The position numbers were made by a program, and so were the translations under genes. A stretch of 21,445 nt of DNA from Promethearchaeota archaeon (GTDB lineage: Archaea; Asgardarchaeota; Lokiarchaeia; Sigyniarchaeales; SOKP01): NCBI GenBank assembly GCA_048939995.1, contig JBHLOY010000026.1, positions 1 through 21,445 on the forward strand. Direction: 5' to 3'. Below, one piece after another: positions 2,160-13,908 of the stretch (position 1 is the first letter of the stretch; every line of letters begins with the position of its first letter). The notes beneath the pieces are model-generated. The model was not told the DNA's origin and ran no database searches. It worked only from the letters and a program-made list of their open reading frames with translations.

Positions 2160-3062
2160 GTGCAAAAAATGAAATTAATGCGAACTCCGGAAGAAAGATT
2201 TCAAGAGATTACTGATTTTCCTTTCGAAGCCCGATATTTAGAAATTGATGGGATAAGAATCCATTTTATCGATGAAGGGTCTAAAGACAAAGACTGTATT
2301 CTATTAATGCATGGTGAACCCTCATGGAGTTATTTGTATAGACATATGATTCCCATTCTTATAAAAGCTGGATATAGAACTATTGCTCCAGATTTAGTAG
2401 GTTTTGGAAGATCTGATAAACCTAGTGAACAAAGTGACCACACATACCATAAGCATGTAGAATGGATGACAAAATGGGTTAAGGTACTAAACCTTAAAGA
2501 TATTACCTTATTTTGCCAAGATTGGGGTTCTTTAATTGGATTAAGAGTTGCTATTGAGAATCAAGAACGTTTTAGTCGAATTGTTTTATCAAATGGAGGA
2601 TTACCAACTGGAGAGCAAAAGACGAATGATGCTATTATGCAATGGCGGGAGTTTTCAAGAACTTCTCCAAGGTTTGATATAAAATCAATTATGCAATCTG
2701 GAACTATTTCTAAATTGTCTAAGGAGACACTAAAAGGCTATAATGCTCCATTTCCTGATGATTCCTATAAGGCAGGTCCTCGTATCATGCCATCTTTAAT
2801 TCCAATTAGTAAGACTGATCCGGAACACGGGGCAAATAAGAAGGCAATAGAGCAGTATAGGAAATGGGAAAAACCATTTTTAACTGCTTTTTCAGATAGT
2901 GACCCAATTAGTAAAGGAGTCGATAAATTCTGGCAAAAAATAGTTCCAGGAGCAAAAGCACAGGATCATGTTACAATTAAAAATGCGAGTCATTTTGTCC
3001 AAGAAGATAAAGGACCCGAGTTAGCTGATGTTATTATTAATTTTATTAAGAACATTTTATAA
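2160..3062 (+). CDS. Haloalkane dehalogenase, HLD-I subfamily (alpha/beta hydrolase)
   Basis: RTPEERF N-terminus, MHGEPSWSYLY, PDLVGFGRSDKP, nucleophile elbow QDWG (D121/W122), cap Trp (W162), acid D248 and base H278 in HFVQED. GTG start, with an alternative ATG at codon 4. Confidence 0.9.
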   Translation: MQKMKLMRTPEERFQEITDFPFEARYLEIDGIRIHFIDEGSKDKDCILLMHGEPSWSYLYRHMIPILIKAGYRTIAPDLVGFGRSDKPSEQSDHTYHKHVEWMTKWVKVLNLKDITLFCQDWGSLIGLRVAIENQERFSRIVLSNGGLPTGEQKTNDAIMQWREFSRTSPRFDIKSIMQSGTISKLSKETLKGYNAPFPDDSYKAGPRIMPSLIPISKTDPEHGANKKAIEQYRKWEKPFLTAFSDSDPISKGVDKFWQKIVPGAKAQDHVTIKNASHFVQEDKGPELADVIINFIKNIL

Positions 3063-3692
3063 TTTTTTTTTACATTCCTTAATATGTTTGCATTCTAATC
3101 TTCGAAATGTAAATTGCGGGCACGAACAACTCCAAGATCCTTCTTCTGTATACTTGACAATATATTTCTTATTGGGATCACTAGAACTTCGTATTTTCCA
3201 TTGTTTTTCCAGAACATCAGCTATTTTACTCTTCTCTGGCTTAATTGGATTTTCACTTGATAGTAAGTCTTTCAAAAATTCTTCCAATTTGTTGACTCCA
3301 TGCTCTTCTGGGATAATTTTTAAGGCAAAATTATCGTATTCAGTAGGCTTATAATTAACTTGGGCAGCTCCATTTTTAAAAAATTTAGCTACAGTACATG
3401 CATAAGGAAGTCTTTTATTTTTTCGAATATAATCCACTAAATTGATAATTAATAATTCTTTTACTTCTTTATTATCAATAATATTTGTTCCCTTATCGGT
3501 AATTTTATGATAACGAATTGTAGGAAATCTCTCTCCTTCTTTAATTTGTTTATGAATTAAGATATCTCCTTCCTTAACCTCATGATTAGGTAAATTTGAA
3601 ATGCTTCTTTGAAAACCAAAATTAGAAGAATGAAGATGAAGCCACCAATCTCCCTCTAAATCATCTTGAATACCATTAATATTAATCTTCAT
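3057..3692 (-). CDS. Hypothetical protein with C-terminal SWIM-type zinc finger
   Basis: C-terminal YIV...WSCSCPQFTFRRLECKHI matches the SWIM CxCx(n)CxH pattern. The N-terminal ~160 aa were not recognised. Confidence 0.8.
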   Translation of the reverse strand: MKININGIQDDLEGDWWLHLHSSNFGFQRSISNLPNHEVKEGDILIHKQIKEGERFPTIRYHKITDKGTNIIDNKEVKELLIINLVDYIRKNKRLPYACTVAKFFKNGAAQVNYKPTEYDNFALKIIPEEHGVNKLEEFLKDLLSSENPIKPEKSKIADVLEKQWKIRSSSDPNKKYIVKYTEEGSWSCSCPQFTFRRLECKHIKECKKKL

Positions 3693-4405: not shown

Positions 4406-5359
4406 TTATTTAACGTATTCCGGGAAGTCTTTTAATAATGGTGCAAAAAGCCTTTCATATTCAACTGCCATTGTATGTACGCCTGCTGCTTTGGTTGTTT
4501 TTTTGATTTCCTTAATAAATGGTTCAAAGAACTCAATGTTTATCTTATCGAGTGCAGCATATTTAGCTGGTTTGTTACCCTTATTCTCCTTTTCTGCTTT
4601 TTTAAGTGACTTAAGAAGGTCTTTTGGAACTGAGACTCCAGGTATGTAGTTATCAAAATACCAGGCAATCCCATAAGATTTCAGTGGAAAGACACCTAAA
4701 AGTACAGGAACATTGAATTGCTCCAACTCCTTAAGGAAATCTTTAGCTTCATCAATATCAAATGCCGTTTGTGTTTGAATAAAGTCAACCCCTTGTTCTA
4801 CTTTACGGCCAACTTTAAGAATCTCTGGCTCACGTGGGTTACTATTTGGATTAGCAACGCATCCGTAATTCATTTCAATCTTACCACCCTCAAGTTCATT
4901 CCCTTCATAATCAGTTCCCTCATCGATCATGATCGAAAGCATTTCACAAAACTGAGTACTATCTATATCATAAACAATTCTTCCTTTTTTGTGATCTCCA
5001 AGCGATGTATGATCTCCTGTTAGAGTTAAAATATTTTTCAATCCTAACACAGCTCCTGCTATAACGTCCCCAAATAAGGCAACGCGATTGCGGTCCCTAA
5101 CAGTGACTTGCCAAACTGCTTCAAGCCCTACTTTTTCCTGAATTAAATAACTCGGCACCAATGAAGACATATAGGCATCTCCCTGTGGTCCATCAGTGAC
5201 ATTTGCTGCTATAATTTTCCCAGTTTTCTTCATTTCTTCAGCAGAATGAAATATTTCATTTAGACTAAGTATCTTTTTAGGTTCTAGCTCACCAGTAAAT
5301 ACAAAATGGCCTTCCTCAATCGCTTTGCATAAATTACTGTATGCTGGTCTTTTTCCCAT
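4406..5359 (-). CDS. metF: Methylenetetrahydrofolate reductase, catalytic subunit MetF
   Basis: TGELEP, NVTD, RDRN, LTGDH and FIQTQ motifs of the MTHFR flavoprotein TIM barrel. Directly abuts metV. Confidence 0.92.
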   Translation of the reverse strand: MGKRPAYSNLCKAIEEGHFVFTGELEPKKILSLNEIFHSAEEMKKTGKIIAANVTDGPQGDAYMSSLVPSYLIQEKVGLEAVWQVTVRDRNRVALFGDVIAGAVLGLKNILTLTGDHTSLGDHKKGRIVYDIDSTQFCEMLSIMIDEGTDYEGNELEGGKIEMNYGCVANPNSNPREPEILKVGRKVEQGVDFIQTQTAFDIDEAKDFLKELEQFNVPVLLGVFPLKSYGIAWYFDNYIPGVSVPKDLLKSLKKAEKENKGNKPAKYAALDKINIEFFEPFIKEIKKTTKAAGVHTMAVEYERLFAPLLKDFPEYVK

Positions 5360-6058
5360 TTAGTCCTTCACCTCCTCCTTTTCTTCTTCTACATTTGTGT
5401 ATTCTTTATAAATTTCCATATATCCAGGACTAGTTGAGGTTCTATAATCTCTCGGGCCTCTATACTTTTTAAATAAATCAAGTCTATTGAATTCTTTTAG
5501 ACGTTTCCAAATTTCAACCCAAGCGCATGGAACAGTATATCCTCTGACTTCACACATTCCATCAACCATCCCTCCGCATGGTCCATTACTCAAATGTTTT
5601 GCGCAACCAGCTCTTGGACATAATCCTCCAGTTTCTCCAATGATACAATCTCCGCAAGTTTCACATAGTTCGATAAAATTATTCTCCCCATTACTTTGTG
5701 CTCCTCCAAACATACTATTTTGAGCAGGGAAGGTGAGTTTCTCTGGTAAAACTTTATTCATCATAACGACACCTAAGCCACATGCTAAGGTTATAATAGC
5801 TTCATAATCATTTAAGATTGGCCTTATAGTTGTAGCAGCAATTCTATCATCACATTGTCTTAGTACTGTAATGGATTTCCATTTAAGAGTTTTCCCTTCA
5901 GTTCTTGCTTTTAGTTCTAGAAGTTGTCCCAATAATTTAGCCTCATTCAGAGATCGAGGTGGCTGGCAACATCCATCACAGCCGGCTACTAAAATTTTTG
6001 AATATGGTCTAATATATTCGTATATTTCAACAATATCTTTTAATTGGGTTATGATCAT
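5360..6058 (-). CDS. metV: MetV, Fe-S/Zn subunit of methylene-THF reductase (MTHFR_C domain)
   Basis: Cys-rich pattern GCDGC, RQCD, ACGLG, CETCGDC, GGLCP...CAK.LSNGPCGG, CEV and CAW. Confidence 0.92.
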   Translation of the reverse strand: MIITQLKDIVEIYEYIRPYSKILVAGCDGCCQPPRSLNEAKLLGQLLELKARTEGKTLKWKSITVLRQCDDRIAATTIRPILNDYEAIITLACGLGVVMMNKVLPEKLTFPAQNSMFGGAQSNGENNFIELCETCGDCIIGETGGLCPRAGCAKHLSNGPCGGMVDGMCEVRGYTVPCAWVEIWKRLKEFNRLDLFKKYRGPRDYRTSTSPGYMEIYKEYTNVEEEKEEVKD

Positions 6059-6104
6059 TTTCTACAACTCTTTATTTTTTAACTTTTTTTTGAATTAAAA
6101 AAAT

Positions 6105-6989
6105 TTATGTGATTAGTTTTTCAATTAATTTGTTAGGTTTTACACTTCTACTTGTAAGACTTAAATCTTCAATACTAACTCCTAAAGCTACTGCCATAAG
6201 TTCTGCCAAATAAAGAACAGGAATATCCAATTCCTTCCCAGACTTTCTAGCGATAATTTTTTCCTTCCTATCATATTGAGTTACACAAGCAGGGCAGACG
6301 GCAATTAAGGCATCAACTTCCTCACTAAATTCACATAATTCTGTCATTTTTTCCTCTACAAGTTTCTCCCCGATTTCATCCTGTAGACGAGCGCAATAAC
6401 CACAACATTCTAATTTCGTAGCAAAATTTATGGTATTTGCTCCTAATGCTTGAAGTATAATATCTATTTTTTCTGGTTTTTCCGGATGATCAAAACGCAT
6501 TATTTTACTTGGTCTAACGAGGTGGCATCCATAATGTACAGCAAGATTTAAGTCATCTAAGGGTTTTACAACTAGGTTTTTTATTTTGTCAAGCATTTTG
6601 GGTTCAGTGAATAATTCAACAAAGTGATAAACCTTTGTTTTTCCTTCATACTCATGATTTATCTTCTTCAATAATACATTAATTTTCTTTAAATAATCTT
6701 TATCCTCTTCTAATAAGACGCTTACAGTCTTTAATGTTTCATAGCATCCAGAACATATAGTAAGTACATTTAATCCCATTTTTTCGGCTATTGAGAGATT
6801 TCTTGCTCCGAGAGTCATCCATGTATCAATATTTAAAGATTGTAAAGAAACGGGTTCTGGACAACAGCTTACGCCCGGCATTTCTTTTAAATTTAAACCT
6901 AAAATACTTGCAACATCTCTAAATGCTTTTTCAAGATGAGGAAGTTTTAAAGGTATTGTGCAACCTAGAAACAAAGCATAATCTACCAT
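6105..6989 (-). CDS. hdrB: Heterodisulfide reductase subunit B
   Basis: Two CCG-type domains: FLGC..SCCP..CSGC and HYGCH..CCG..CPAC. Confidence 0.93.
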   Translation of the reverse strand: MVDYALFLGCTIPLKLPHLEKAFRDVASILGLNLKEMPGVSCCPEPVSLQSLNIDTWMTLGARNLSIAEKMGLNVLTICSGCYETLKTVSVLLEEDKDYLKKINVLLKKINHEYEGKTKVYHFVELFTEPKMLDKIKNLVVKPLDDLNLAVHYGCHLVRPSKIMRFDHPEKPEKIDIILQALGANTINFATKLECCGYCARLQDEIGEKLVEEKMTELCEFSEEVDALIAVCPACVTQYDRKEKIIARKSGKELDIPVLYLAELMAVALGVSIEDLSLTSRSVKPNKLIEKLIT

Positions 6990-7523
6990 TTACTTATCAA
7001 CCTCCTTTTTGATTATAAGATTTCCCAATCCCGTTTCATTAATTATTAATTTAATTTCCTCTAGATTGGGGGGAATAATTTCTGGTAAGCCTAATCTTTC
7101 TCTCCTTCGATCAACATTCTTCTTCAAACCTTCAGTATAGGGCACTACAAAACCATTATCGTAAATAACCTCAACTGTACTGGAATATTCCTTAGGGATT
7201 CTTCCTTCATTTGCAGCTAAATTTCGTAATAAAGCTAAAATGAAAGAGTAATCAACATTTTTAGGACATCTTTCAGTACATCTGTGACATAACGAACATG
7301 TCCAAATTGCGTTACTTGATAATACTTCTTCTTTCAGACCTAAAAGACATGATGCTACTACTCTATGTGGTTGTAGATCAACATATTCCGTAACTGTACA
7401 GCCAGAACTGCATACTCCACACTGAATACATTTTAAAAGTGATTTTGCACCTACTTTCTTTGCAATTTCATAGCGAAAGTTCAAGTCTAATTCCTTAGCG
7501 TTCTTTTTTAACATTTCAGACAA
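6990..7523 (-). CDS. hdrC: Heterodisulfide reductase subunit C
   Basis: CIQCGVCSSGC and IWTCSLCHRCTERCP provide two [4Fe-4S] motifs. RRERLGLP tail. TTG start with upstream AAAGGAGG. Confidence 0.92.
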   Translation of the reverse strand: MSEMLKKNAKELDLNFRYEIAKKVGAKSLLKCIQCGVCSSGCTVTEYVDLQPHRVVASCLLGLKEEVLSSNAIWTCSLCHRCTERCPKNVDYSFILALLRNLAANEGRIPKEYSSTVEVIYDNGFVVPYTEGLKKNVDRRRERLGLPEIIPPNLEEIKLIINETGLGNLIIKKEVDK

Positions 7524-7526
7524 TTT

Positions 7527-10500
7527 TTAAGTCCCCTCCTTTACTTTCTTCTTTTTAGATTCGAATCTATCACCAGTTTTCGGTAAGGGTCCAATTTTTT
7601 TTACTTTATTTACAAATTCTGTTACTACTTGAGAAAAACGCTTTCCTTCACTTGCGGAAACCCATTCAAGCTGAAATCGATCCGAACTTATTCCTACTTT
7701 TTCTAGCAAAACTTTGATTTCATTATATCGTTTAAGCATGTCATAATTACCTTCTAAATAATGGCAATCTCCAATATGGCATCCACCAATAAATACCCCA
7801 TCGGCACCTTCTAAAAAAGCTTGCAAAATGAAATGTTTTGGGATTCTTCCTGTACACATTACCCTAATAGGTCTAATATTTGTTGGGTATTGAAATCGAC
7901 TTACACCACATGTATCTGCTCCAGCATAACTACACCAGTTACATAAAAATGCAATAATACGAGGTCTCTCATCAACAAATTCTCCTCTAACAGCCTCATG
8001 AATCATAGGGTATATTTGTTCGTCAGCAAAATGGCTCATTGTAATAGCTCCTGCTGGACATGCTGCCGAACAATCCCCACATCCTTTACACAATAAAGGA
8101 TTAGATTGTGAAACTAAAATAGGATTATCAAAGTTGACACCAATGGCACCAAAATTACAGACTTCTTCACATTTTTGGCAGGCTATACATAATGCAGGAT
8201 TTACTACTGAAACTAAAGGTTCGTTTTCAACCTCTCCAGAGAGGAGTGGAATTAAAGCATGAGCCGCAGCACCTCTAGCTTGTGAAATTGAATCGGAGAT
8301 TCCTTTAGGGCTATGACAAGTTCCTGCTAAAAATATTCCATCTGTAGCAAAATCAACGGGCCTTAATTTTACATGAGCTTCTAAGAAAAATCCATTCTGA
8401 TCTCTAGCGCATTTTATCATTTCTCCTAATTTTTGAGTATCGTGGGGAATTAATGGTGTTGAAAGTACTAATCTATCTGCTTCAATTGTAAGATCAGTTT
8501 GAGTTAAGATATCTTGTACTCTTACCTTCAATTGTCCATTTTTATTATCAACAGTTGGATATTCATTAAATCGAATATAATTTATATTCTCTCGAGCTTT
8601 CCAATAAAAAGGCTCTTCTTCAGTTCCAACTCGTATATCTCGATAAAGCACGTAAATATTTGAATTAGGATATGTCTCTTTTACATATAAAGCATGTCTA
8701 ATGGATTCAGAACAACAAATCAGAGAACAATATGTGACTCCATTACCTCCTTCTGGTTGGCGTGACCCTACGCAATGAATAAAAACAAGTGTTTCACCGT
8801 CTTTTAATTCTTTATTTCTTAATATTCCTGATAACTCTAATTGAGTAATAACATTTTTATTCTCACCATAATGATACCACCCTATAGGTTTATACTCATA
8901 AGCACCAGTAGCAATAATTATAGTTCCAACATTTAGGTTAATAGTATTGTCTTCTGGAATATTTCTTAACTTAACCTTAAAATCACCAATTGAACCTTTT
9001 ACCTCGATTACTTCAGAATTTAAATAGCTACTTATATTTTTCAGATTATTATAGTCTTTTAATTGATTTTTTAGATATGTTTCAGAGTCGATTCTATCAG
9101 AATTAATTTTATAAATTAGATTTAACTGCCCTCCTAACTTGTCTTCTTTTTCAACCAGATGTACTCTAAATCCTTTATTAGCGATGTCCATTGCTGCACT
9201 CATCCCTGTAACTCCTCCTCCGACTATTAGTGCTTCCGGAATAACCTTACCTTTAATCTTGTATTCTGGTTTCTGATAAATTGCTCTGGCTACACCCATC
9301 CTTATTAAATCTTTAGCTTTATCTGTTGCTTTTACATTGTCTTTCATATGAACCCAAGAATCTAGTTCCCGTATACTAACAAAATTGAAAAGATATTCGT
9401 TTAGTCCAGCTTCTCTAATAGTTTTTTGAAACAATGGTTCATGAGTCCGTGGTGTACATGCAGCAACCACCACACGGTTCAGATTAAGTTCTTCAATTTT
9501 ATCTTTTATGATATCTTGGGTTAATTGCGAACAACTGTATTTATTTTCTTCCGAATAGACTACATTGGGAAGGGTTTTAGCATATTCTACTAAAGAAGGT
9601 ACATCAATATAACCTGCAATATTAATACCACATCGACAAATAAAAACTCCTATACGTGGTTCATCACCCGACAAAATGTTTTTCAAAGGCGGTAATTGAA
9701 TTTTTTGATCCTCCTCACTTAAGGGTGTAGCGTGACTCGCTGCTAGCGCAGCAGCACCACCTGCTTTAGCAACTGAATTGGCTATATCGTCTGGAGATTG
9801 ACAGGAACCAGTTACATAGATTCCGGGTTTAGTAGATCTTAAATCTTCTGTTGAATCAGCTGTTTTAAAAAACCCAAATTCATTTTGTTCAATCCCTAGA
9901 ATTTTAGCGAGTTTATCAGCATCATTCCGTGGAGTTACAGCATTCGCGAGTACTACAAGATCATATTCATCAACATCAACTTCTCCAGTATCTAAATTAG
10001 CTGATTTTACGATTAGATTGTGATTTTCTGGATTTTCTCTAACATCTCCGGGGATACCATGATGATACTCTAACTTATATTCTTCTCTTGCCCGTACGGT
10101 AAATTCATCCTGATTTTTTCCAATAACTCTAAGATCATTGAAGTAAATGGTGACATTTGTATCAGGAGAATGTTCTCTCGTAACTACAGCTTCCTTTGTT
10201 TGATACATGCAACAAAATTTAGAACAATATGCGCATAAATCTTCATTTCTAGAACCAACACAACTGATAAATGCTATTTTATGAGCATGTGCTTTATCTG
10301 AAGGACGTAAAATCTCTCCCCCCGTGGGACCAGATGCACTTAATAAGCGTTCATATTGCATGGCAGTTATTACATTCGGATATTCTCCATAGTGATATCT
10401 ATCTAATACTGAAGGATTAAGCTGGTCAAAGCCTGTTGCTACAATTATAGAAGCTACTTTATAATTTACAATTTCATCTTTATCTTCCCAATTAATAGCA

Positions 10501-11015
10501 CCTGCTTCACATTCCTTTTCACAGATTTTACAGGCATTTTTTGTTAAATATAGGCATTTTTCTGGGTCTATTACTGCTTTACGTGGAACTGCCTGAGGAA
10601 ATGGAATGTAAATTGCTGTCCTATTACCCATACTTTCCTCAAATTCGGAGGGAATTTTTTTCATTGGGCATTTTTCAGAGCATACTGCACAACCTGTGCA
10701 TACGTCCCAATTTACATACTTAGCCTTCTTTAAAACTTTAACATCAAATTCTCCTTCTGAACCATTTACTTCTTGTATCTCAGAATATACTAATAAATCA
10801 ACGTTCGGGTGACGAGATACTTCAACCATTTTTGGGGCCAAAATACAGATTGAGCAATCTAAAGTAGGAAATGTTTTATCTAACTGCGCCATCCTGCCAC
10901 CAACGGAGGATGTTCTTTCAACAAGAATTACTTTATAACCTTGTTCAGCTAATGTAAGACTTGCCTCTATCCCTGATATTCCACCACCAACAATCATTAT
11001 ATTATTACTTGCCAT
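7527..11015 (-). CDS. hdrA: Heterodisulfide reductase subunit A-like fusion: two HdrA flavin modules plus C-terminal MvhD domain
   Basis: Module 1: VGGGISG, GGRMAQLDKTFPTLDCSICIL, ferredoxin insert, CVGSR..CSKFCCMY. Module 2 (from ~9660 down): RIGVFICRCG, AACTP, VGGGVTG, CVGSR..CSLICC, two CxxCxxCxxxC. MvhD domain (~7970-7527): FLCNWCSYAGAD, RVMCTGR, GCHIGDCHY, WVSASEG. Confidence 0.95.
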   Translation of the reverse strand: MASNNIMIVGGGISGIEASLTLAEQGYKVILVERTSSVGGRMAQLDKTFPTLDCSICILAPKMVEVSRHPNVDLLVYSEIQEVNGSEGEFDVKVLKKAKYVNWDVCTGCAVCSEKCPMKKIPSEFEESMGNRTAIYIPFPQAVPRKAVIDPEKCLYLTKNACKICEKECEAGAINWEDKDEIVNYKVASIIVATGFDQLNPSVLDRYHYGEYPNVITAMQYERLLSASGPTGGEILRPSDKAHAHKIAFISCVGSRNEDLCAYCSKFCCMYQTKEAVVTREHSPDTNVTIYFNDLRVIGKNQDEFTVRAREEYKLEYHHGIPGDVRENPENHNLIVKSANLDTGEVDVDEYDLVVLANAVTPRNDADKLAKILGIEQNEFGFFKTADSTEDLRSTKPGIYVTGSCQSPDDIANSVAKAGGAAALAASHATPLSEEDQKIQLPPLKNILSGDEPRIGVFICRCGINIAGYIDVPSLVEYAKTLPNVVYSEENKYSCSQLTQDIIKDKIEELNLNRVVVAACTPRTHEPLFQKTIREAGLNEYLFNFVSIRELDSWVHMKDNVKATDKAKDLIRMGVARAIYQKPEYKIKGKVIPEALIVGGGVTGMSAAMDIANKGFRVHLVEKEDKLGGQLNLIYKINSDRIDSETYLKNQLKDYNNLKNISSYLNSEVIEVKGSIGDFKVKLRNIPEDNTINLNVGTIIIATGAYEYKPIGWYHYGENKNVITQLELSGILRNKELKDGETLVFIHCVGSRQPEGGNGVTYCSLICCSESIRHALYVKETYPNSNIYVLYRDIRVGTEEEPFYWKARENINYIRFNEYPTVDNKNGQLKVRVQDILTQTDLTIEADRLVLSTPLIPHDTQKLGEMIKCARDQNGFFLEAHVKLRPVDFATDGIFLAGTCHSPKGISDSISQARGAAAHALIPLLSGEVENEPLVSVVNPALCIACQKCEEVCNFGAIGVNFDNPILVSQSNPLLCKGCGDCSAACPAGAITMSHFADEQIYPMIHEAVRGEFVDERPRIIAFLCNWCSYAGADTCGVSRFQYPTNIRPIRVMCTGRIPKHFILQAFLEGADGVFIGGCHIGDCHYLEGNYDMLKRYNEIKVLLEKVGISSDRFQLEWVSASEGKRFSQVVTEFVNKVKKIGPLPKTGDRFESKKKKVKEGT

Positions 11016-11142
11016 ATTTGATCATTTTTTATTTCTAAATTATGTTTTTCCAATATTTTTCTAAAATAAATAGCCCTTTTTGAAAATGATTGTTTAGTTT
11101 AAAAACTAATATCGTTATAATTAACAAATTAAATCATATATC

Positions 11143-11158
11143 TATATAAATATTTCCT
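11143..11158 (-). promoter_or_regulatory. Archaeal BRE/TATA promoter candidate for the hdr-met operon
   Basis: The minus strand reads AGGAAATA-TTTATATA, about 130 nt upstream of the hdrA ATG. Confidence 0.55.
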
Positions 11159-11227
11159 AAATTGGATTTTTTTTGTCAAATTTATATTGTTTTTGATCAT
11201 TTTTAAGATAAAATCTAAGGGATTTAG

Positions 11228-11252
11228 TAACTTTTTTTAACAAAAAAAGTTA
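11228..11252. repeat. Perfect 11-bp inverted repeat with 3-nt spacer
   Basis: TAACTTTTTTT-AAC-AAAAAAAGTTA lies between the pepD stop and the hdrA promoter. Confidence 0.6.
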
Positions 11253-11363
11253 AACTTGATTAATAGAGCTTGATCTAATAAAATTTGAATGACAGATATG
11301 AGATTTAATTATTTTAAAAATCAAATGTTTTTAACAGTTTTTAGGAATTTAAGAGCAATAGAC

Positions 11364-12884
11364 TTATCTCTTTTCAGTTCTTTTTATGTTATTGAGAATA
11401 GCTATTAAGAATCTCCATATTTTTTCAACACTACTAATTTTCAACCGCTCATTTGGAGAATGGCCATCTTTAATTGTTGGTCCAATTGAAATCATTTCCA
11501 TATTAGGGAAATATTTAGTAAAAGAATTACATTCACATGTTCCGTGGGTTGCGTTGATTTTAGCCTCTATGTTAAATAATTTCTGATATATCTCTCGAGC
11601 TAAGTTTAAAAAATTTAAATTAAAATTTGGAGACCAGCTTGGATAATCTAAATCAAATAAAATACTAAATTTCAAGTCCATCATATTTAAAAGATCAAAA
11701 ATTTTTTCATTTAATACGTATTTTTCATATTCAGAAGAACTTCTTTGAAGTGTCTGGAAAATTATTCTACTTTCTTCTGTTTTTAGTGTTCCTAGATTAG
11801 AAGAAGTCTGAACTAAATCTTTTATTTTTGGATGCATTGAAATCAGTCCATCTGGTATAAGATATAAATAACTTAACAATTTATTCTGAAAATTTTCTTG
11901 AAAGCTAGTGTAATCTGAATAATCTAGTAATTTTTGAACAGAAATTCTAATAGTTTTCTCAATTCCATTGAATAGATCCTTAATATAGCTAAAAATATCT
12001 TGAATAAAAGTATTTATTTTAGAAAAGCTGCTCTTCTCAGCATAAATTACCACTTGAGATTCTCTAGGTATTGAATTATGATGAGTGCCTCCGTTTAAAG
12101 AATTAATATAAATTTTGAATTTCTTATTCAATTTCCATAATATTTGTGAGAGAAGCTTTATTGCATTAGCACGCCCTTTATTAATATCAACTCCTGAATG
12201 ACCCCCTATTAAATCCCCTAAGGAAATTTTAATTGGGATAAGTTCTGTTTCATTACCTTCTAAAGATTTTCTTTTTATTTTTAATTCAATTATATTATGT
12301 ATTAATCCAGCGGATCCTATTATAATCTCATTCTCATCTTCGGCATCAAGATTTATTAAATAATCACTGCAAATTAAACTAGTGTCTAATTGAAGGATAC
12401 CCATACCTTTCCCTTCCTCATCTACAGTGAACACTAAATCTAATTCTAAAGGAGCAAAATTCAGCTCCCCATTATACACTTTTTTCATTATTGATAGTTG
12501 ATACGCAATACCAACACCATTATCTGCCCCCAAGGTTGTACCTTCCGCAGTTAACCACGTTTCGTGATCTTCATCTATAAGTTTTAATTTTAATGGATCT
12601 TTCGAAAAATCATGTTGTACTCCCTCTATCTTATTACATACCATATCCATATGGCATTGTAAAACTATTTTTAATTGTTTTTCTGAGTTCTGCGCTTTTG
12701 ATGGAATTTTTACAACGATGTTTCCTACTTGATCAATTTCCACAAGGAATTTGAACCTCTCAGCTTCTTTCCTTATAAACTCCCTTATTTGGGTTTCGTT
12801 TCTTGTACACCTTGGGATTCTAGAGATTTGGTATAAATAATCCCAGAATTCTGGTGGATTACCTAATAATGCTAAATTTTCCAC
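11364..12884 (-). CDS. pepD: Aminoacyl-histidine dipeptidase (peptidase M20C)
   Basis: LQCHMDMV, GTTLGADNG, TVDEE, GGHSG.DI..GRANA, SIGPT and HSPNER. GTG start. Confidence 0.92.
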   Translation of the reverse strand: MENLALLGNPPEFWDYLYQISRIPRCTRNETQIREFIRKEAERFKFLVEIDQVGNIVVKIPSKAQNSEKQLKIVLQCHMDMVCNKIEGVQHDFSKDPLKLKLIDEDHETWLTAEGTTLGADNGVGIAYQLSIMKKVYNGELNFAPLELDLVFTVDEEGKGMGILQLDTSLICSDYLINLDAEDENEIIIGSAGLIHNIIELKIKRKSLEGNETELIPIKISLGDLIGGHSGVDINKGRANAIKLLSQILWKLNKKFKIYINSLNGGTHHNSIPRESQVVIYAEKSSFSKINTFIQDIFSYIKDLFNGIEKTIRISVQKLLDYSDYTSFQENFQNKLLSYLYLIPDGLISMHPKIKDLVQTSSNLGTLKTEESRIIFQTLQRSSSEYEKYVLNEKIFDLLNMMDLKFSILFDLDYPSWSPNFNLNFLNLAREIYQKLFNIEAKINATHGTCECNSFTKYFPNMEMISIGPTIKDGHSPNERLKISSVEKIWRFLIAILNNIKRTEKR

Positions 12885-13227
12885 TTTATTTACACCGCAT
12901 AAAAAATATTTGCTTTGATTGAATTAATTTAATATTATTCCATACTCTTTTTTAATATTATCTAAATCTTTAATTATGAAGCCGTGTTAATGGGTAGGAA
13001 GTATTATACACCCTATAAAATTTAATTATTATTATCTAAGTAAATAATAAAAGAAAAGAATCAATATTTAAGCAATCTTATGCTAAAGATACCTTCAAAA
13101 TTATAGATTAATTATTATTTGATGAATTTAAACAGACTCATATTATCTATATATTAATCGAAATAATAAAACAAAAAAAGTTAATAGAACAATAATAAAA
13201 CATAATTGAGAACTTAACTTCGACAAA

Positions 13228-13908
13228 ATGAAAATCGTTGTATCAGGTCCATTACAATGTGGAAAATCGTCTTTCATTAAACATTTTGATGAAAATGCTT
13301 TAAATGTTGAGGCAAAGGCAAGGGATAATAAGTATTATACTGTTGGTATGGACTTAGGATGTGTAAAGTTAAATGGTTTTGATGTATTTCTTTTTGGAAC
13401 TCCGGGATTACTAAGATTTAACGTTATGAGAGATGTTGTTTTAAAAGGGACTGATGGGATTATTTTTATATTTGATGCGGCTCATCCTGAGAAAGATGAA
13501 GATGCGATTATAATTTTAAACTCAATAAGGAAAGTAATTAAGCAAGATGTTCCAATTATATTTTTAGCTAATAAACAGGATATGGCAGGAGCAAGGCATC
13601 CTGAAGTTTTAAGGGCTCAAAATTACTTACCTCAAGAGGCAGTAGTTTTTCCCACAAGTACAAGAACAGGAGAAAATCTTGATGACGTATTAAAGCAACT
13701 TGTTAATCAAATTTATGAACATTATGCTTCCTTAATCGAAATATTACGCACTTATGAAGACAATATCGAAGGTTTAGCAGAAAAATTAAAGAAAGATCCA
13801 ATTGAAATGAGAGATTTCTTAAATAATCTTGAAATAAAACGTTTTATTGAAATTGATCGTTTTAGTCGAACTTTTAAAGTCAAAGAAGGATTAAAAATTT
13901 TAATCTAA
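13228..13908 (+). CDS. Small GTPase (MglA/CvnD-like ATP/GTP-binding family) with C-terminal winged-helix-like extension
   Basis: G1 GPLQCGKS, G2 TVGMD, G3 FGTPG, G4 NKQD and G5 PTST, plus about 60 extra C-terminal residues. Confidence 0.88.
   Translation: MKIVVSGPLQCGKSSFIKHFDENALNVEAKARDNKYYTVGMDLGCVKLNGFDVFLFGTPGLLRFNVMRDVVLKGTDGIIFIFDAAHPEKDEDAIIILNSIRKVIKQDVPIIFLANKQDMAGARHPEVLRAQNYLPQEAVVFPTSTRTGENLDDVLKQLVNQIYEHYASLIEILRTYEDNIEGLAEKLKKDPIEMRDFLNNLEIKRFIEIDRFSRTFKVKEGLKILI

Follow-up and report, generated by a model that had tools for sequence, protein, structure and literature searches.

The 21,445-nt stretch of DNA analyzed here (the window) is contig C33 of the genome of a Promethearchaeota archaeon from the class Lokiarchaeia (assembly GCA_048939995.1, contig JBHLOY010000026.1; source genome G000: 3.75 Mb, 98% complete, 5% contaminated). 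Its minus strand carries a five-gene operon that joins subunits of heterodisulfide reductase (HdrA, HdrB, and HdrC) and a fused MvhD to MetV and MetF, the subunits of a methylene-tetrahydropterin reductase. This operon is real and conserved, and it is probably central to the metabolism of the lineage. Its components and associated features are as follows:

11150-11143, minus strand: candidate TATA box TTTATATA, with a purine-rich stretch upstream that resembles a B recognition element (BRE), 135 nt before the hdrA start
11015-7527, minus strand: hdrA(x2)-mvhD fusion, 1162 aa (ORF, Pfam/NCBIfam, and PDB matches)
9726..11015, minus strand: HdrA module 1, residues 1-430; flavin (FAD) domain of the thioredoxin reductase (TrxR) type with an inserted 2x[4Fe-4S] ferredoxin domain
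8001..9674, minus strand: HdrA module 2, residues ~448-1005; N-terminal Fe-S domain, second FAD/TrxR domain, C-terminal 2x[4Fe-4S] domain
7572..7967, minus strand: fused MvhD [2Fe-2S] domain, residues ~1017-1148 (FlpD, E 3e-51; PDB MvhD matches)
7523-6990, minus strand: hdrC, 2x[4Fe-4S] subunit, 177 aa, TTG start (Pfam/NCBIfam)
6989-6105, minus strand: hdrB, 294 aa, with the two non-cubane cluster motifs plus Cys199, an additional invariant cysteine (CCG-x-C)
6058-5360, minus strand: metV, 232 aa, Fe-S/Zn subunit with the Gln32-Pro-Pro-Arg-Ser36 motif typical of Hdr-linked copies
5359-4406, minus strand: metF, 317 aa, flavin methylene-tetrahydropterin reductase of an Asgard/Bathyarchaeia clade
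4301-3840, minus strand: lrp/asnC regulator gene, 104 nt downstream of metF

Analysis of the open reading frames (ORFs) confirmed five co-oriented genes in the order hdrA(x2)-mvhD, hdrC, hdrB, metV, metF, with intergenic gaps of 3, 0, 46, and 0 nt along the operon. Pfam and NCBIfam searches identified the products (FlpD for the MvhD domain, with the E value listed above; CCG; Fer4_8; DUF5981, E 2e-28; MTHFR, E 1e-24). A previous reading of the window, made from the sequence only, had described this gene order and spacing, apparently intact Fe-S and flavin motifs, an upstream TATA/BRE candidate, and a lack of mvhAG, fdh, flx, and mcr genes, and this observation was confirmed: the cysteines of HdrA/MvhD and HdrB are conserved, the glutamate/lysine (E/K) flavin signature is kept, and no ORF of the window encodes mvhAG, fdh, flx, or mcr. 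Clusters of mvhGA-hdrCB and flx-like hdr genes lie elsewhere in the source genome. Of 29 relatives, 21 have a box matching the TATA candidate at a distance of 127-156 nt before hdrA, though the surrounding DNA is very AT-rich (24% GC). A scan for sigma-70 promoters and terminators, which is ill-suited to archaea, returned matches at chance level. The lrp/asnC gene, which follows metF in 75 of the 80 loci compared, is probably part of the same unit.

Of the 151 genomes in the class, 138 yielded a MetF homologue, most of these genomes having two types, and the Hdr-linked type is present in ~104 of 126 family genomes. The gene directly before metV encodes an Hdr component in all 80 loci, namely hdrB (66 loci), an HdrA(x2)-MvhD fusion (12 loci), or an HdrA-GltD-MvhD fusion (2 loci). 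The hdr-metVF link extends to Helarchaeales (L045 and L047) and, with a changed order, to another Asgard class (L149). The synteny survey that had been suggested for this locus thus showed a link that is not unique to the source genome, and its conservation removes two of the grounds on which the sequence-only reading had been prepared to abandon a joint Hdr-MetVF system. The constant core is HdrA-MvhD plus MetVF, whereas hdrBC and extra modules vary. In the variant of L049 (6344-9076), L127, and L130, the unit lacks hdrBC, and the gene immediately ahead of metVF encodes a 910-aa HdrA that contains a GltD/NAD(P)H insert and is fused to MvhD. An FrhB/FpoF-like gene (L043:9208-10350), a possible F420 link, heads the hdrA-metVF unit of L043, with a second, divergent metVF pair beside it. 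In another Asgard family (L160 [9249-13496], L161, and L162), two mtrH genes come after metV-metF, with an MtrA-like gene (identified by eye) between them. The second MetVF type lacks hdr neighbors in the source genome and in most loci seen; the stand-alone pair of the source genome (G000:C4:11874-13499; L137) is 44% and 37% identical to the operon copies.

The anatomy of the HdrA-MvhD fusion was read by alignment to 5ODC_A and to 75 related fusions, in which all 33 tested HdrA/MvhD cysteines are invariant. Module 1 contains Cys54 (equivalent to Cys197), Glu222/Lys274 (equivalent to Glu356/Lys409), and the inserted ferredoxin domain, each invariant in 75/75 fusions, and lacks both the N-terminal and the C-terminal Fe-S domains. 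Module 2 lacks Cys197 and the inserted ferredoxin, and Ser729/Arg773 replace the E/K pair (Ser in 61 and Arg in 59 of 64 type I fusions). Module 1 would therefore be the carrier of the bifurcating flavin, and the bifurcation module postulated earlier finds support in this single E/K signature. The fused HdrA reads as the functional equivalent of half an HdrA dimer of methanogens, with a single E/K flavin and one ferredoxin exit; from the division of domains between the two modules, it follows that the fusion would hold exactly one bifurcating electron path. This complementarity of domains and the E/K pattern fit the electron path described in PMC9012536. Pfam and NCBIfam searches of the 1162-aa fusion gave no match to a GltD NAD(P)H module. 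The source genome encodes about a dozen HdrA-like genes. In four of these paralogues, an in-frame TGA occupies the position of the second DCxxC cysteine, which is Cys57 in the window, and these are selenocysteine candidates (G000:C8:5545-7398, C17:74325-76208, C21:21698-23494, and C26:42798-44447).

MetV has 12 cysteines that are invariant in 80/80 loci. Complex prediction was applied to a sole pair, MetV with HdrA residues 930-1150 (the C-terminal ferredoxin/MvhD arm), and yielded a model score of 0.72, versus 0.00 for the best control. Of 80 solved complexes, 58 reached the mark set for such predictions, as did 2 of 110 mismatched pairs, counts that are rough since our own alignments were used. 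The runs agreed in at least 83% of contacts, with a partner predicted local distance difference test (pLDDT) score of at least 88. In the model, the MetV loop after Cys27/Cys30 contacts an MvhD helix and, in the C-terminal ferredoxin domain, Cys946 and Cys986. The contact residues Pro33, Pro34, Arg35, Leu49, and Lys50 are invariant in the 80 Hdr-linked MetV proteins and replaced in 14/14 stand-alone MetV proteins, a pattern of which shared ancestry may explain a part. Profile searches found no solved MetV structure, Foldseek returned nothing at E <= 0.001, and VIA-align retrieved generic Rossmann-like folds alone (best Z 9.1, rmsd 3.2 over 107 residues). Since no solved MetV was found, a memorized MetV complex is unlikely, though the HdrA-MvhD arm itself is well known. 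The same Foldseek and VIA-align lists do not support docking of MetV through a likeness to MvhG. MetV is thus predicted to dock on the C-terminal-ferredoxin/MvhD entry arm, where MetVF would occupy the mid-potential port and pass electrons to or from ferredoxin and a disulfide.

HdrB retains both non-cubane cluster motifs; each of its ten cluster cysteines is shared by 71-72 of the 72 homologues, and His156 is conserved too. An additional cysteine, Cys199 in CCG-x-C, occurs in 72/72 linked copies and in none of the six other HdrB paralogues of the source genome, as well as in 20 of the 120 nearest homologues of the Helarchaeales HdrB. This residue may take part in the chemistry or may close the site. 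The loss of the GAGGG loop was discarded as a special sign; most nonmethanogen HdrB proteins vary there, and only the extra cysteine is specific. Both Hdr subunits score under the equivalog cut-offs (HdrB, 270 bits versus 345; HdrC, 103 versus 160). Searches of the source genome for methyl-coenzyme M reductase (MCR) and for the coenzyme M (CoM) route found no MCR, ComA, or cysteate synthase. HdrB may act on a disulfide other than that of CoM and coenzyme B (CoB), as envisaged by the sequence-only reading. A ComD/ComE-like pair (G000:C28:55472-56526) passes the TIGR03845 cut-off despite the lack of matches to ComA and cysteate synthase.

In MetF, Glu24, Asp116, Gln197, and Phe235 are invariant in 80/80 loci and equal Glu28, Asp120, Gln183, and Phe223 of the Escherichia coli enzyme, as read from motifs and an alignment with Thermus methylenetetrahydrofolate reductase (MTHFR). 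A homologue search with MetF retrieved close Loki sequences only. In a quick tree, which includes a Bathyarchaeia sequence and holds no Moorella or ANME-1 (anaerobic methanotrophic archaea, group 1) sequence, the Lokiarchaeia form a clade (Shimodaira-Hasegawa-like approximate likelihood ratio test [SH-aLRT], 100) within an Asgard and Bathyarchaeia group (SH-aLRT, 94), whereas sequences named Clostridioides and Brocadia fall outside the archaeal group. Because metF is family-wide and clusters among archaeal sequences, its recent transfer from bacteria was rejected. MetF also does not resemble an NAD(P)H-dependent enzyme of methionine biosynthesis working alone, an outcome that had been entertained for this gene: it scores 44 bits against TIGR00676 (cut-off, 294), always occurs with metV and hdr, and no MetE/MetH pterin domain was found. 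One locus of an NCBI genome (L169:8001-11117) encodes a 1038-aa MetF-CdhD/AcsD fusion inside a cooS-hdrA-mvhD-metV-acs cluster.

The source genome encodes FwdA, Ftr, Mch, Mtd, CdhA, CdhC, CdhD/E-family subunits, ribofuranosylaminobenzene phosphate (RFA-P) synthase, CofH, and two MtrH proteins. No protein passes the cut-off for Mer (best, 121 bits versus 349). Mer over the cut-off is likewise absent from the 144 genomes of the order and present in 6/7 genomes of other orders in the class. Eight genomes that are 92-100% complete (G021, G045, G071, G073, G083, G097, G115, and G121) have CdhC and Hdr-linked MetF and no Mer-like match at all. This agrees with the Loki-3 lineage, for which CO2 assimilation and an almost complete Wood-Ljungdahl pathway on tetrahydromethanopterin (H4MPT), with Mer missing, have been described (PMC8027215); only a distant COG2141 candidate was offered for that gap. 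Fhs was found in 0/127 family genomes, and the source genome yielded no MetE and no AcsE/MetH pterin domain beyond FolP and a dihydropteroate synthase (DHPS)-like protein. Its methionine synthase candidate matches PRK06052, a family that we take to be of the folate-independent MesC type, and lies 7 kb from the stand-alone metVF on the same contig. Genera g14 and g17 of the sister family, which include two single-contig genomes, show Fhs, whereas CdhC and the Hdr-linked MetF type were not found, nor were FwdA, Mtd, and CdhA in the members searched. Because Fwd, Ftr, Mch, Mtd, and acetyl-CoA decarbonylase/synthase (ACDS) are kept while Fhs, Mer, AcsE, and MetE were not found, genome context favors, to a reasonable degree, methylene/methyl-H4MPT over folate as the substrate. 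The bacterial-type folate step proposed by the sequence-only reading is accordingly not supported, given also the Asgard/Bathyarchaeia affiliation of MetF.

Some further observations concern the same pathway. In four genomes of other Asgard lineages, metVF is near a true mer gene (0.2-4 kb away in L153, L154, L157, and L164), and in others it adjoins mtrH. L047 encodes a 546-aa Mer with an N-terminal extension (1119-2759), 3.4 kb from its hdrA-mvhD-metVF unit. The fwdA gene of the source genome has a 30-nt in-frame insert with a TGA (G000:C17:377423-377452, minus strand) that folds as a canonical bulge-helix-bulge; without it, fwdA is one 573-aa frame matching its relatives, and 22 other genomes have no stop there. 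A strict scan of the genome for this motif gave 5 matches versus 6 in a shuffle, and the fwdA match alone joins a frame. The idea that the interrupted fwdA betrays a dead pathway was rejected, since the break is the bulge-helix-bulge insert.

The five products very probably form one complex. We give an even chance to the proposal that a single soluble MetVF-HdrA(x2)MvhD-HdrBC complex interconverts methylene- and methyl-H4MPT, thereby replacing Mer in a Loki-3-type Wood-Ljungdahl pathway. HdrA module 2 would supply the entry arm, made up of the C-terminal ferredoxin domain, MvhD, and the N-terminal cluster, and MetV would dock on it where MvhAG or FdhAB dock in methanogens, while module 1 would supply the single bifurcating FAD and the ferredoxin exit. 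Oxidation of methyl-H4MPT would send one share of the electrons to ferredoxin and the other to a disulfide at HdrB; in the opposite direction, reduced ferredoxin and thiols would jointly supply the electrons for reducing methylene-H4MPT, by confurcation. The Mvh-Hdr and Flx-like Hdr clusters of the source genome could recycle thiols and ferredoxin. Whether bifurcation with ferredoxin and a disulfide is strict seems to us evenly poised. Reported potentials are -420 mV for ferredoxin and -140 mV for CoM-S-S-CoB (PMC5861303). Their mean, -280 mV, is 80 mV below that of methylene-tetrahydrofolate (-200 mV). Methylene-H4MPT, at about -320 mV, is close to this mean, and the reaction could therefore run either way, serving CO2 fixation or acetogenesis on the one hand or the oxidation of acetyl-CoA or methyl groups on the other; the folate counterpart would allow reduction by confurcation only. 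With either pterin, the complex would not make reduced ferredoxin while reducing the methylene group. That activity, put forward by the sequence-only reading, finds no support in an HdrA without an NAD(P)H module and a MetV predicted on the entry arm of hydrogenase and formate dehydrogenase, whereas its alternative of methyl-group oxidation in reverse stays a live option. The most novel version, a soluble bifurcating methyl-H4MPT:ferredoxin/disulfide oxidoreductase whose HdrA is a single-chain asymmetric protein with MetVF where the hydrogenase would sit, and whose HdrB uses Cys199 with a new thiol carrier, is put forward tentatively, and we consider it less likely than not.

The observations that weigh against this proposal are best considered along with its alternatives. 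Among them are that the Moorella type IV enzyme did not use ferredoxin (PMC13391211) and that the source genome has ComDE-like genes but no match to ComA, cysteate synthase, or MCR. A type IV MTHFR acting on folate, as in Moorella and Sporomusa, and coupled to the Hdr flavin would have the same parts list as the bacterial complexes, conserved catalytic residues in MetF, and FolD and FolP in the source genome; moreover, the characterized MetVF enzymes found in the literature use folate, as MtrH-like proteins can (the family includes the folate-using MtgA), and the literature search returned no MetF with demonstrated use of H4MPT, which is a proposal in PMC9012536. We nonetheless consider this explanation unlikely in view of the lack of Fhs matches in the family, the archaeal MetF clade, an HdrA without an NADH module, and genomes that have Fhs but no acetyl-CoA synthase (ACS) and lack Hdr-linked MetF; nor did the source genome reveal an AcsE, MetH, or MetE that would use methyl-tetrahydrofolate, its methionine synthase candidate being the PRK06052 match. 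Alternatively, the complex may act on H4MPT without bifurcation, in which case Hdr would be a wire or an adaptor for electrons of ferredoxin or of some other partner, and HdrB would be structural or blocked by its extra cysteine. Points in this direction are that hdrBC does not adjoin metV, and thus is dispensable there, in 14/80 loci; that the partner module varies (the GltD/NAD(P)H insert of L049, L127, and L130; the FrhB-like gene of L043); that the additional cysteine beside the HdrB cluster motif is invariant; and that type II MetVF takes electrons directly from ferredoxin (PMC8760232). Yet Glu222/Lys274, Cys54, and the inserted ferredoxin domain never vary among the 75 fusions, the ten cluster ligands of HdrB are kept, and 9 of the 14 loci without adjacent hdrBC have an hdrCB pair or a second hdrA set further upstream, all of which makes a mere wire improbable.

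It is also conceivable that the real substitute for Mer is the stand-alone MetVF or a divergent luciferase-like F420 enzyme, as suggested in PMC8027215, with the operon being accessory and devoted to condition-specific methyl oxidation. Most genomes hold the second, stand-alone metVF, and genus g3 (89-100% complete) has it as its only MetVF while keeping CdhC and FwdA; the operon is therefore not required by every ACS-bearing Loki. Helarchaeales carry Mer and the cluster together, and in many genomes the Mer model scores proteins of the luciferase-like monooxygenase (LLM) family at 120-172 bits; the source genome encodes an LLM-family protein at G000:C11:270943-272013. True Mer proteins score far higher (390-500 bits), however, and the eight nearly complete genomes with CdhC, Hdr-linked MetF, and no Mer-like match, together with the broad occurrence of the Hdr-linked type across the family, render this scenario quite unlikely. 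The surveyed genomes are kin, and the counts given for either side are not independent. The H4MPT-linked complex described above remains our preferred reading.

Other genes of the window lie around the operon. A small Ras/Arf-like GTPase gene (13228-13908, plus strand) is divergent upstream of the operon in many relatives and adjoins genes for phosphoenolpyruvate carboxykinase and a thermosome subunit. A protein of 211 aa that has a weak SWIM zinc finger at its C terminus (3057-3692, minus strand) and an M20 peptidase (11364-12884, minus strand) are encoded next to the operon here and not in the 20 relatives compared.

The operon provides a concrete, family-wide candidate for the Mer gap of Loki-3 (PMC8027215), and the switch from Mer to MetF is likewise unexplained in ANME-1 (PMC9012536). 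The interest is limited in that the enzyme type and the idea of H4MPT use have already been published. Still, the Loki version offers a simpler test case for the electron partners of type IV enzymes, being soluble-looking and endowed with one signature flavin and a retained ferredoxin-exit domain. Natural variants (with or without hdrBC, with the GltD insert, or with the FrhB-like neighbor) are at hand along with specific residues to mutate. The operon also bears on the redox balance of Asgard archaea in acetogenic or syntrophic growth.

Our literature search, with most subscription papers outside its coverage, retrieved no paper on the Loki operon and no test of a type IV MTHFR in any archaeon. 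A new system, for which the sequence-only reading named the operon as a candidate, is not supported, as archaeal MetFV-HdrA-MvhD clusters and a role on H4MPT are already in PMC9012536, where clusters of this kind in Ca. Syntrophoarchaeum were proposed to use H4MPT and to funnel electrons directly into HdrA bifurcation. That description is a remark on two genomes, with hdrBC unnamed in the cluster, whereas the Loki operon is family-wide, includes hdrCB and lrp, and is hosted by non-alkane-oxidizing Asgard archaea. MetF/MetV of ANME-1 and Ca. Syntrophoarchaeum are the proposed substitutes for Mer (PMC9012536, PMC10322722). Their archaeal MetF group also comprises Bathyarchaeia and Asgard sequences, and PMC9012536 places Asgard MetF with the ANME-1 type.

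In methanogens, HdrABC associates with MvhAGD or with FdhAB-MvhD (PDB 5ODC); the Loki operon instead has a single-chain asymmetric HdrA pair, with MetVF in lieu of the hydrogenase. Its HdrB shares the two non-cubane cluster motifs but reads CCGYCAR in the loop that is CCGAGGG in methanogens, and neither MCR nor a complete CoM route was found in the source genome. In QmoAB of sulfate reducers, an HdrA-MvhD fusion comes after a short HdrA-like flavoprotein, which is like the order of the Loki modules. Presumably, the Loki operon departs from it in having neither the membrane subunit QmoC nor adenosine phosphosulfate (APS) reductase, and in the ferredoxin domain inserted in module 1.

The sequence-only reading was right in recognizing a type IV-like MetVF-Hdr-MvhD cluster, since the parts list matches those of Moorella and Sporomusa. 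In Sporomusa ovata, HdrCBA-MvhD-MetVF has two flavin domains, with E/K in the first only, and no GltD domain, as in Loki, and pull-downs show that MetVF interacts with Hdr/MvhD (PMC9430772). The S. ovata HdrA lacks the inserted ferredoxin domain, which the Loki protein keeps, and a membrane quinone link was proposed for it; the S. ovata model sends electrons via HdrCB to MetV, whereas in our model, built for the MetV and arm pair only, the MvhD arm is the docking site of MetV. The type IV MTHFR of Moorella thermoacetica, MetFV-HdrABC-MvhD (PMC9430772, PMC8760232, PMC5861303, PMC13391211), has the same six components in one cluster and shares the tandem HdrA, the two TrxR-like flavin domains, and the complementarity of Cys197 and the N-terminal domain. 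Its electron partners are still unknown in bacteria (PMC13391211), and coupled bifurcation or confurcation is unproven for the bacterial type IV complexes too (PMC13391211, PMC8760232). Unlike the Moorella complex, the Loki operon has MvhD fused to HdrA and one E/K flavin rather than two; the GltD NAD(P)H module of the Moorella HdrA is lacking in the type found in the window and present in one variant; and the Loki MetF belongs to an archaeal clade, in a genome that has H4MPT enzymes but neither Fhs nor AcsE. Collectively, these comparisons indicate that the Loki operon probably resembles a type IV MTHFR but differs from it in the likely substrate, the build of HdrA, and HdrB.

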